Below, in pieces: positions 5,434 through 6,285 of a stretch of 64,000 nt of DNA. Each line of letters opens with the position of its first letter. Position 1 is the stretch's first letter. Under the pieces are notes generated by a model. The model was not told where the DNA came from, did not search any database, and saw only the letters and a list, made by a program, of their open reading frames with translations. The translations under genes were made by a program, and so were the position numbers. This stretch comes from an uncultured Gemmatimonadota bacterium (GTDB lineage: Bacteria > JAAXHH01): positions 3,136,001 to 3,200,000 of the forward strand of contig OX638340.1 of NCBI GenBank assembly GCA_951812955.1, read 5' to 3'.

Positions 5434-6285
5434 ATGGAGACATCCGAACCTCAAGACGGTAATCAAGACGGTAAGGCCAGACACGAGGCGGAATCGCTTT
5501 CCGGTGCCAGTGCGGCCGGCTCCGGTGCCAGTATGACCGGCTCCGGTGCCAGTGCGGCCGGTCCTGGCCTTTCCCGCCGCGGGTTTCTCGGTAAAATAGC
5601 AGGCGGCGCTCTGGCCGGACTGGCCGGCACCGCGGTTCTCAACAGTTGTGCGGATTCATCCCCAAAGGAGAGTACCATGTCATTCACGCTGCCCGATCTG
5701 CCCTATGCCCATGACGCGCTCGAACCTCACATCGATACGCGCACCATGGAGATTCATCACGGCAAGCATCACAACACCTATATCACCAACCTGAATAACG
5801 CCCTGGCCGACCACGGCGATCTGGCCGGAAAGAGTCTGGATGAGTTGCTGGCGGACAACTGTGCCATCGTGCCGGACGCCATCCGGACCGCCGTGCGCAA
5901 CAACGGCGGCGGCCACGCCAACCATACGCAGTTCTGGACGATCATGAGCGGCAGCGGCGGCGGGAATCCCACGGGCAACCTGGCCGCGGCCATCGACGGC
6001 GCCTTCGGCGGTCTCGACGCGATGAAAGAGCAGTTCGCGGCAGCGGGCGCGACGCGCTTCGGTTCAGGCTGGGCCTGGCTCGCAAAGGACGGCGCGGGCA
6101 ACCTCGAGGTCTATTCCACGGCCAACCAGGACAGTCCGGTCATGGAAGGCAAGACGGCTATCCTGGGTCTTGACGTATGGGAGCACGCCTACTATCTGAA
6201 CTATCAGAACCTGCGCCCCGCGTACATTGAAGCCTGGTGGAACGTCGTGGACTGGGCGGAAGCGGAAAGACGCTACAACGGCTGA
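5434..6285 (+). CDS. Fe/Mn superoxide dismutase, possibly with N-terminal Tat/lipoprotein-like extension
   Basis: [34 protein letters not shown]. Upstream in-frame extension contains [26 protein letters not shown] (RR motif plus Cys) and a 21-bp x3 tandem repeat. Alternative ATG at 5677 has a strong SD (AAGGAGAG). Confidence 0.85.

Follow-up and report, generated by a model that had tools for sequence, protein, structure and literature searches.

Does a superoxide dismutase (SOD) gene with two in-frame start codons, the outer of which adds a leader resembling an export signal, make one enzyme or two? The question is raised by an open reading frame (ORF) at positions 5434..6285 (+) in a 64,000-nucleotide (nt) stretch of DNA from an uncultured Gemmatimonadota bacterium (GenBank assembly GCA_951812955.1, contig OX638340.1, positions 3,136,001 to 3,200,000 of the forward strand), which we call the window. 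The ORF encodes 283 amino acids (aa), an 81-aa leader followed by a 202-aa SOD that begins at ATG 5677. A sequence-only reading of the window had suggested that the gene may yield both a cytoplasmic enzyme and an exported lipoprotein. By comparing the gene with its relatives, we found that the leader has been kept as coding sequence and that the inner start is the older of the two. An exported enzyme is therefore highly probable in our estimate, and that a single gene supplies both an exported, lipobox-tethered enzyme and a cytoplasmic one is a proposal to which the sequence comparisons lend roughly even chances.

Two in-frame starts and a conserved leader

The frame is indeed open upstream to ATG 5434, as the sequence-only reading had said: its 81 additional codons are bounded by an in-frame TAG at 5404-5406, and the interval from this TAG to ATG 5434 holds no other start codon. 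The reading's strong Shine-Dalgarno (SD) sequence ahead of ATG 5677 and canonical SOD of about 200 aa were likewise borne out, with Pfam domains that begin at residue 83. The elements that define the two starts are as follows.

5413..5423 (+), purine-rich tract AGGAAAGGAAG, the weak SD-like site of the long start
5434..5436 (+), ATG, start of the long form, the first start codon past the in-frame TAG
5665..5672 (+), internal SD AAGGAGAG, its GGAG core 6 nt from ATG 5677
5677..6285 (+), Mn-type Fe/Mn SOD of 202 aa, stop codon at 6283-6285, identified by Pfam, NCBIfam and solved structures

The outer tract AGGAAAGGAAG gives an anti-SD duplex of -5.9 kcal/mol at about 11 nt from ATG 5434. An equivalent start position is present in 6/6 orthologs, where the protein opens with M-[KE]-x-x-x-[PQT], and an SD-like tract precedes the long start of every one of them (in L001, AAGGAGG at -12.4 kcal/mol). 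The inner SD, with a duplex of -9.4 kcal/mol, beats 20 of the 24 other scored gene starts in the window, four being stronger; it is the same in six of seven leader-bearing sequences and reads GAGGAGAG in the seventh, L001. The two in-frame ATG codons thus each have a conserved site resembling a ribosome-binding site (RBS) at proper spacing. An alternative long form beginning at Met34 (ATG 5533) would have an n-region of normal length; it was considered and rejected, since no SD precedes this codon and the orthologs lack the Met.

To find the nearest relatives, a protein search was made against 5.8 billion proteins, and the DNA of the relatives' loci was then compared together with the nearest loci in bacterial genomes, one genome per species; all sequences compared are metagenome-derived. 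The nearest relatives in the protein search (core identity 86-94%) have lengths of 262-276 aa and share the extension of the window protein, and the next (core identity ≤85%) have lengths of 201-204 aa. Seven distinct leader-bearing sequences were available, namely the window, L011, L004, L005, L006, L013 and L001 (L012 being the L001 locus), and all of the leader-bearing loci have the gene order DUF6483-MiaB-SOD-ADH-AP_endonuc_2-ThiD (ADH, alcohol dehydrogenase). Outside this clade, no twin-arginine (RR) leader was found among the 80 nearest GTDB-genome loci and the 80 nearest Joint Genome Institute (JGI) metagenome loci; the long tblastn matches L046, L048, L063, L099, L114, L139, L154 and L162 are low-complexity noise. 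The nearest named SOD cores come from metagenome-assembled genomes of Gemmatimonadota, Zixibacteria and Latescibacteria.

A block of 40 codons, which opens with G-x-G-L-S-R-R and ends at the junction Met, can be aligned in the seven sequences without a gap. Signal codons 0-25 have undergone at least 24 synonymous events at 24.6 sites (0.98 per site), a rate like that of the SOD core, and 12 nonsynonymous events at 53 sites (0.22 per site), all of them conservative (L/I/V/M, K/R or G/A/S). Neutral evolution of the leader has P ~2e-11 on these counts, and mean pairwise pN/pS is 0.35 in the leader and 0.09 in the core. Judged from these alignments, the leader is a translated coding sequence under purifying selection. 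The sequence-only reading had called the extension unlikely to arise by chance: for the openness of the frame alone this claim is too strong, since 81 open codons have P ~0.10 at this G+C, but the conservation in relatives does go beyond chance. Alignment with its homologs shows the extension to be conserved in all seven distinct sequences, where it stays in frame and is held by purifying selection, and the homologs neither start uniformly at the internal Met nor leave the region upstream of it unconserved.

The leader itself is laid out as follows.

5434..5571 (+), residues 1-46, variable, acidic, repeat-rich n-region, delimited by Tandem Repeats Finder (TRF) repeats and ortholog lengths
5572..5595 (+), residues 47-54, twin-arginine motif S-R-R-G-F-L-G-K, from the alignment and TIGR01409
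5596..5640 (+), residues 55-69, hydrophobic h-region of 15 residues, from hydropathy and conservative changes
5638..5649 (+), lipobox-like L-N-S-C, with Cys72 at 5647-5649
5650..5676 (+), residues 73-81, linker ADSSPKEST, followed by Met82, a translated former 5' untranslated region (UTR) as judged from the orthologs

Between 26 and 47 residues stand before the RR motif, in seven different n-region lengths in the seven sequences, and the frame is always kept. TRF reports a 21-bp repeat at 5500-5561 (3.0 copies, 85% matches) and a second tandem repeat, of 12 bp x2, at 5451-5474. The former had been described as a perfect threefold repeat, a description that has to be corrected: relative to copy 1, copy 2 is off at three bases (GCGG -> ATGA) and copy 3 at its last base. 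Because it also varies among near-identical strains, the 21-bp repeat is functionally uninformative, and the n-region repeats as a whole reflect fast slippage with little constraint beyond that on frame. The repeat make-up differs among close strains (the window, L007, L011, L004 and L005), with SVACAAG/SVASTAG in L011, EADSNPETHSYP x2 in L005 and a form of its own in each of the window and L007. Nothing in Pfam matches residues 1-82.

Past the n-region, the leader has the features of a signal for export by twin-arginine translocation (Tat). The motif S-R-R-x-F-[LI]-G-[KR] is kept, R-R-x-F and the flanking Ser being invariant in 7/7, and it follows the Tat consensus S/T-R-R-x-F-L-K (PMC8193680) with the Lys shifted by one position. 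All seven sequences have an uncharged run of 19 residues (mean Kyte-Doolittle value ~1.6), against the minimum of about 13 expected of a Tat h-region, and amino-acid changes in the h-region are conservative (L/I/V/M, A/G/S). At its end, Cys72, the Leu at -3 and the Ser at -1 are invariant in 7/7, with the Cys always 22 residues past the RR. The canonical lipobox, as given in PMC12462473, is [LVI][ASTVI][GAS]C, and L-S-S-C of L001 is the sole example among the seven; an atypical one, CVSC of Ycf48, is nevertheless lipidated (PMC8038367). We classify the leader from its sequence as Tat-type and lipobox-like, and do not file the protein as a lipoprotein. The conserved, in-frame leader makes it very probable that an exported form exists, as the sequence-only reading had supposed, and lipidation at Cys72 is predicted as its likelier fate. 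Of the twin-arginine, lipoprotein-like signal in that reading, the RR motif, the h-region and the invariant Cys have stood, and the lipobox part needs qualification, LNSC being off-canonical at -2 in 6/7.

Origin and possible use of the inner start

Leaderless syntenic orthologs share the CCAAAGGAGA..ATG start region with the window's inner start. In the leaderless L009 (84% identity) and L174 the miaB-sod gap is only 76-112 nt, and both genes start at the same ATG, behind ..CTCAAGGAGAAGTATC ATG and ..CTCCCAAAGGAGACAACT ATG; the nucleotides of the window's linker, ..CCCAAAGGAGA.., are those of the untranslated RBS region in L008, L171, L174 and L009. By this comparison the inner SD and ATG 5677 are the gene's ancestral ribosome-binding site and start. 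Because leaderless orthologs share that SD and ATG, the linker S-P-K-E-S-T is translated former 5' UTR. The possibility raised earlier that the SD is fortuitous does not survive, as the SD and ATG make up an ancestral start common to these orthologs.

Neighbour joining of the core sequences groups the seven leader-bearing genes in one clade, with L008/L173 and L171/L172 as its sister clade. In the sister clade the SOD is preceded by about 200 nt in which a decayed leader is recognisable at these positions.

L008:3880-4000, decayed leader
L173:380-505, decayed leader
L171:1880-2000, decayed leader
L172:145-264, decayed leader

The h-region has suffered a 9-nt deletion and carries charged residues (Asp, His), a stop codon is present, and in L171/L172 the leader is thrown out of frame by a 1-nt deletion ahead of the SD. 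The SD, the ATG and an intact 202-aa SOD are kept throughout the sister clade. With the leader decayed, a 202-aa SOD could be made there from the inner ATG only, so that, on this sequence evidence, the inner start demonstrably suffices for expression once the leader has been lost. The pattern across the loci indicates that the leader was acquired a single time, after which one branch retained it and the other lost it. Assembly error was considered as the cause of the decay in L008, which lies on a contig with split MiaB and ADH, and was rejected, L173 showing the same decay. A differently decayed leader is identical in L171 and L172, which come from two independent samples, and the assemblies of L008 and L173 are likewise separate; the loss of the leader is real because the decay recurs in separate assemblies and samples.

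Whether the inner start is still used where the leader is intact can be approached through the constraint on the codons that precede it, in the following segment.

5638..5679 (+), segment of 14 codons, L69-M82, with suppressed synonymous change, from counts of synonymous events

These codons show two synonymous events at 8.4 sites (0.24 per site) where the rate of the core predicts 7.6 (Poisson P = 0.018); per site, the core has 0.91 events and the remainder of the signal 0.98. Non-overlapping 14-codon windows of the core range from 0.62 to 1.20 synonymous events per site. In a sliding comparison, the 12-codon window from L69 has a pairwise pS of 0.07, the lowest of 230 windows (median 0.35). 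The non-preferred codons in the segment (AGT x2, TCA, CCA and TGT) never vary synonymously, while genome usage of AGT and TCA is 8% each of Ser codons, that of CCA 11% and that of TGT 34%. The sole replacement to touch the SD, K -> E in L001, retains GAGGAGAG. Both start codons lie in valleys of low mRNA structure, and the middle of the leader is strongly structured. G+C at third codon positions (GC3) is 0.58 in the leader (5434-5676) and 0.81 in the core (5677-6282), with an overall G+C of 0.58 in the window; a step of this kind would be consistent with a larger flow of ribosomes from the inner start. A conserved hairpin that sequesters the SD was considered and rejected, since RNAalifold pairs TTCTC (Leu69 region) with GAGAG with 0 compensatory pairs, and single-sequence fold z-scores in the inner-SD region are -0.5 to +0.6. 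No sigma-70-type promoter for a short transcript was found in 5200-6400, nor was the TAnnTTTG motif. Taken as comparative evidence, the suppressed synonymous change leaves the chance that the inner start is also used behind an intact leader at even or a shade better. The dual-isoform idea of the sequence-only reading is favoured to that extent, by a comparison of sequences.

A mechanism can be proposed in which the ancestor was a plain cytoplasmic Mn-type SOD that started at the present ATG 5677. In the ancestor of the small clade, an upstream start and twin-arginine leader would have been joined to it in frame through read-through of the old 5' UTR, so that the old SD would now encode the P-K-E-S of the linker. 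The product of ATG 5434 would be a precursor whose folding and Mn binding take place in the cytoplasm, before its export by the Tat pathway; the lipidated Cys72 and a 9-residue linker would then tether it on the outer side of the inner membrane or within the periplasm. Ribosomes would also load on the same mRNA at the stronger inner SD (5665-5672), and initiation at ATG 5677 would give the leaderless cytoplasmic enzyme, one gene thereby covering both compartments.

Similar leaders are found well beyond this clade. A profile of the leader plus SOD N-terminus was searched against 1.84 billion representatives, and among the best 150 matches (P0121-P0270) at least 37 clusters at 50% identity have genuine leaders with RR and h-region. 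The junction Met is kept in about 12 of 37 (TKTMSY, KKTMAH, KEKKMPF and others) and lost in about 25; a Cys stands at the end of the h-region in 2-4 of the at least 37 clusters. Tat-type leaders on Fe/Mn SODs are, by these sequence matches, common in metagenomes and not new. An independent lineage, L175 (L175:254-640), combines RR with an AGAC lipobox, and its linker reads 'AAGGAGAAGAAG ATG'; its inner SD is AAGGAG, at -8.3 kcal/mol, and its long start is without an SD. In L176 both starts are without an SD. Read together, these sequences allow the tentative view, which we hold at somewhat less than even strength, that the window carries a programmed two-compartment MnSOD gene of a design that recurs through capture of a leader by way of the 5' UTR and is reversible by leader decay.

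Several observations weigh against dual localisation or against its individual parts. The constraint test compares seven related sequences over about eight synonymous sites and reaches P ~0.02, and another window of the core is almost equally low in pS. Low GC3 and rare codons are common in signal peptides generally. Retention of the SD and ATG could just reflect a young fusion, and a second cytoplasmic SOD elsewhere in the genome would remove the need for an internal start. As to export, the TIGR01409 (TAT_signal_seq) match sits at the twin-arginine spot in all seven sequences and scores below the cut-off of 16.7 in each (15.4 bits in the window, 13.7-15.6 bits in the orthologs). The n-region is unusually long for a signal peptide (about 46-47 residues) and net acidic, and six of the seven sequences, with L-N-S-C, depart from the canonical lipobox by Asn at -2. 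Finally, a motif search of the 64-kb window found no second SOD, TatA/TatC, Lgt or LspA; the two GYH[IL]H matches belong to M23 peptidase-like ORFs.

It is very improbable that the gene makes a cytoplasmic enzyme only, with ATG 5677 as the true start and an untranslated open frame upstream in G+C-rich DNA, even though an open frame of 81 codons is within reach of chance, the inner SD is stronger than the outer, the ortholog P0004/L006 is called at the inner start and the more distant homologs are all about 202 aa long. We reject an untranslated frame because of the synonymous excess in the leader and because the frame survives seven different lengths. Replacements in the h-region are conservative, with RR and Cys invariant, an SD-like site stands ahead of every long start, and the leader that is untranslated, that of the sister clade, is visibly decayed. 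A more substantial alternative, which we regard as possible though on balance doubtful, is that the long form alone is functional. The inner SD and ATG would then be an inert leftover, retained since the fusion is young and the linker they encode is tolerated, and cytoplasmic superoxide would be left to another gene elsewhere in the genome. The evidence for a translated, Tat-like leader fits this explanation equally, and the roughly 25 of 37 other RR-leader SOD clusters that lack the junction Met indicate that it is dispensable for export. Cores within the clade have diverged little (84-94% identity), which would allow leftovers to persist, but synonymous turnover of about 0.9 per site elsewhere against 0.24 in the codons before ATG 5677 is hard to match with an inert relic, as are the non-preferred codons near this ATG, fixed in 7/7, the retention of an SD by L001 through its K -> E replacement, and a sister clade whose inner start works after loss of the leader.

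The manner of export is a question independent of that of the two starts. Instead of lipidation, signal peptidase I might cut after S-C-A73 and release a soluble periplasmic enzyme, or the leader might stay uncleaved as an anchor; we think either of these unlikely. The Asn at -2 speaks for them, as does S-x-A before D74, which is an acceptable type-I site in five sequences; moreover, most other RR-leader SODs have no Cys and look type-I-like (ILNSAFA in P0204), and the Anabaena MnSOD (1gv3) is membrane-bound via its N-terminus according to work cited in PMC8193680 and PMC6616624. This type-I site is, however, unconserved, its Ala at -1 (A73) being Val in L013 and L001, whereas Cys72, Leu at -3 and Ser at -1 never vary. 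The fully canonical LSSC of L001 and the lipidation of an atypical box in Ycf48 (PMC8038367) point the same way, and the h-region, a Gly- and Ala-rich stretch of 15 residues, is short if it were to act as a stable transmembrane anchor. Export with lipidation at Cys72 thus stays the form of the proposal that we prefer.

The SOD core, its locus and its annotation

The core matches Sod_Fe_N (PF00081) over residues 83-172 with 105.9 bits (cut-off 27) and Sod_Fe_C (PF02777) over residues 179-280 with 136.2 bits (cut-off 20.9). Its motifs are NNGGGHANH, ANQD and DVWEHAYY, with the Fe-type NNxAQ missing, and the metal ligands (His, His, Asp, His) lie in conserved core motifs, DVWEHAYY among them. The Mn subtype is marked by an active-site Gln contributed by the C-terminal domain (..NQD..) and by G-G-H in place of the A-Q of Fe enzymes. 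Among NCBIfam models the core fits SodA [Mn] best, with 237.7 bits where the equivalog cut-off is 363, and the closest solved structures are MnSODs, including Anabaena 1gv3 (E = 1.6e-76); all solved SOD structures align from residue 82-84 on. From its sequence the core appears to be Mn-type (SodA-like), though a cambialistic enzyme is also compatible with it.

The next gene, which resembles a Zn-dependent alcohol dehydrogenase, most likely starts at ATG 6307 behind GGAGG, 21 nt past the SOD stop (6283-6309). No terminator is predicted between miaB, sod and adh, and because of this and of a gene order kept in all relatives the three probably form one operon. In the 64-kb window, no Rfam family (tRNA, rRNA or riboswitch) reached its gathering score, a separate tRNA scan not having been run. 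Two very large minus-strand ORFs lie near each other at 20995-28287 (2430 aa) and 29462-35287 (1941 aa).

Start calls are inconsistent in the clade, with proteins annotated at 202 aa as well as at 262-283 aa. In L006 (ortholog P0004, L006:1612-2406), for example, the public gene call uses the inner ATG and gives 202 aa despite an intact RR leader. Such disagreement among gene callers changes the predicted localisation of the enzyme, a practical lesson for start-codon annotation in this clade. Among public protein collections, P0019 (L007:2439-3269) is a near-twin of the window SOD with frameshifts, from a contig of 2x coverage, and in protein P0121 the N-terminal segment of the SOD is duplicated; both look like assembly artefacts.

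Superoxide cannot cross membranes, so that the cytoplasm and the periplasm need separate protection, and textbook bacteria use different genes for the two, a cytoplasmic Fe/Mn SOD and a periplasmic Cu,Zn SOD. If both starts of the window gene are used, a single Mn enzyme would protect both compartments, and Tat export would guarantee its Mn loading. One syntenic locus shows leaderless ancestors, intact fusions and decayed leaders, and is thereby a record of the gain and loss of an export signal. If the proposal is true, capture of a leader with retention of the RBS would be a general and reversible bacterial route to dual localisation.

Comparison with known systems

A periplasmic Fe-SOD with a Tat signal is known from Desulfovibrio, although our literature search gave nothing directly usable on it. 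Tat signal peptides have also been predicted for cyanobacterial MnSODs, those of Chroococcidiopsis SodA2.1 and its relatives (PMC8193680). These enzymes are like the window enzyme in having a Fe/Mn SOD core of apparent Mn type, a twin-arginine leader and predicted export in the folded state. Their leaders are short, lie at the extreme N-terminus and have an A-x-A type-I site without a lipobox Cys, whereas the window SOD has a long variable n-region, an invariant Cys and an ancestral SD and ATG inside its ORF. Chroococcidiopsis also has a separate leaderless MnSOD, and retention of an inner RBS is not described for it.

For SodA of Anabaena/Nostoc PCC 7120, several active forms in different compartments are reported to come from one gene (Raghavan 2013, as cited in PMC8193680), and a membrane-bound MnSOD of Anabaena is likewise reported (Regelsberger 2002 and Raghavan 2013, as cited in PMC8193680 and PMC6616624). 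As in the window, a Mn-type core (1gv3) is joined through a linker to an N-terminal hydrophobic targeting segment. The Anabaena forms, as far as these accounts go, reportedly arise by proteolytic processing of one precursor and not from a second start, and the Anabaena leader has neither an RR motif nor a lipobox and shows no sequence match to that of the window. MncA, the Mn-cupin of Synechocystis, is exported by Tat with its Mn trapped during folding in the cytoplasm (PMC4192464); there, as we propose here, Tat would let a Mn enzyme load its metal before it meets periplasmic Cu and Zn. MncA has an unrelated fold and enzymatic function, and the likeness is thus one of function and not of homology.

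The closest parallel to two products of one Mn-SOD gene is Sod2 of Cryptococcus neoformans, which gives a mitochondrial and a cytosolic enzyme, the latter from an internal Met (PMC7961099). Like the proposed pair, it combines a targeted form with an internal-Met cytosolic form, but it is eukaryotic, depends on an alternative transcript under Cu limitation, uses a mitochondrial peptide and has been demonstrated by experiment, whereas our case is argued from sequence comparison. In bacteria, N-terminal proteoforms from in-frame internal starts are known for ClpB, CheA L/S and SpaO, and shifts in localisation are recognised among them (PMC13515050); a further example is the internal-start proteoform of ClpB in Mycobacterium tuberculosis (PMC6168691). 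These genes resemble that of the window in having two in-frame starts, each with its own RBS, on one mRNA, and long and short products. Among the described bacterial proteoforms we found no SOD, and none that pairs an ancestral short form with a long form bearing a Tat leader.

Tat-dependent lipoproteins, which occur in Streptomyces as well, likewise have an RR motif, and a Cys closes their h-region. Those known, including Tat-dependent lipobox proteins of haloarchaea (PMC2945643), have canonical lipoboxes, some with mutational proof, whereas the window and its relatives have Asn at -2 in 6/7 and their lipidation is predicted. Judged by sequence, what is particular to the present gene is the combination of a Tat-type, lipobox-like leader that was captured by way of the gene's own 5' UTR, a record of its gain, retention and loss at one syntenic locus, and an ancestral RBS that is under constraint at the nucleotide level.

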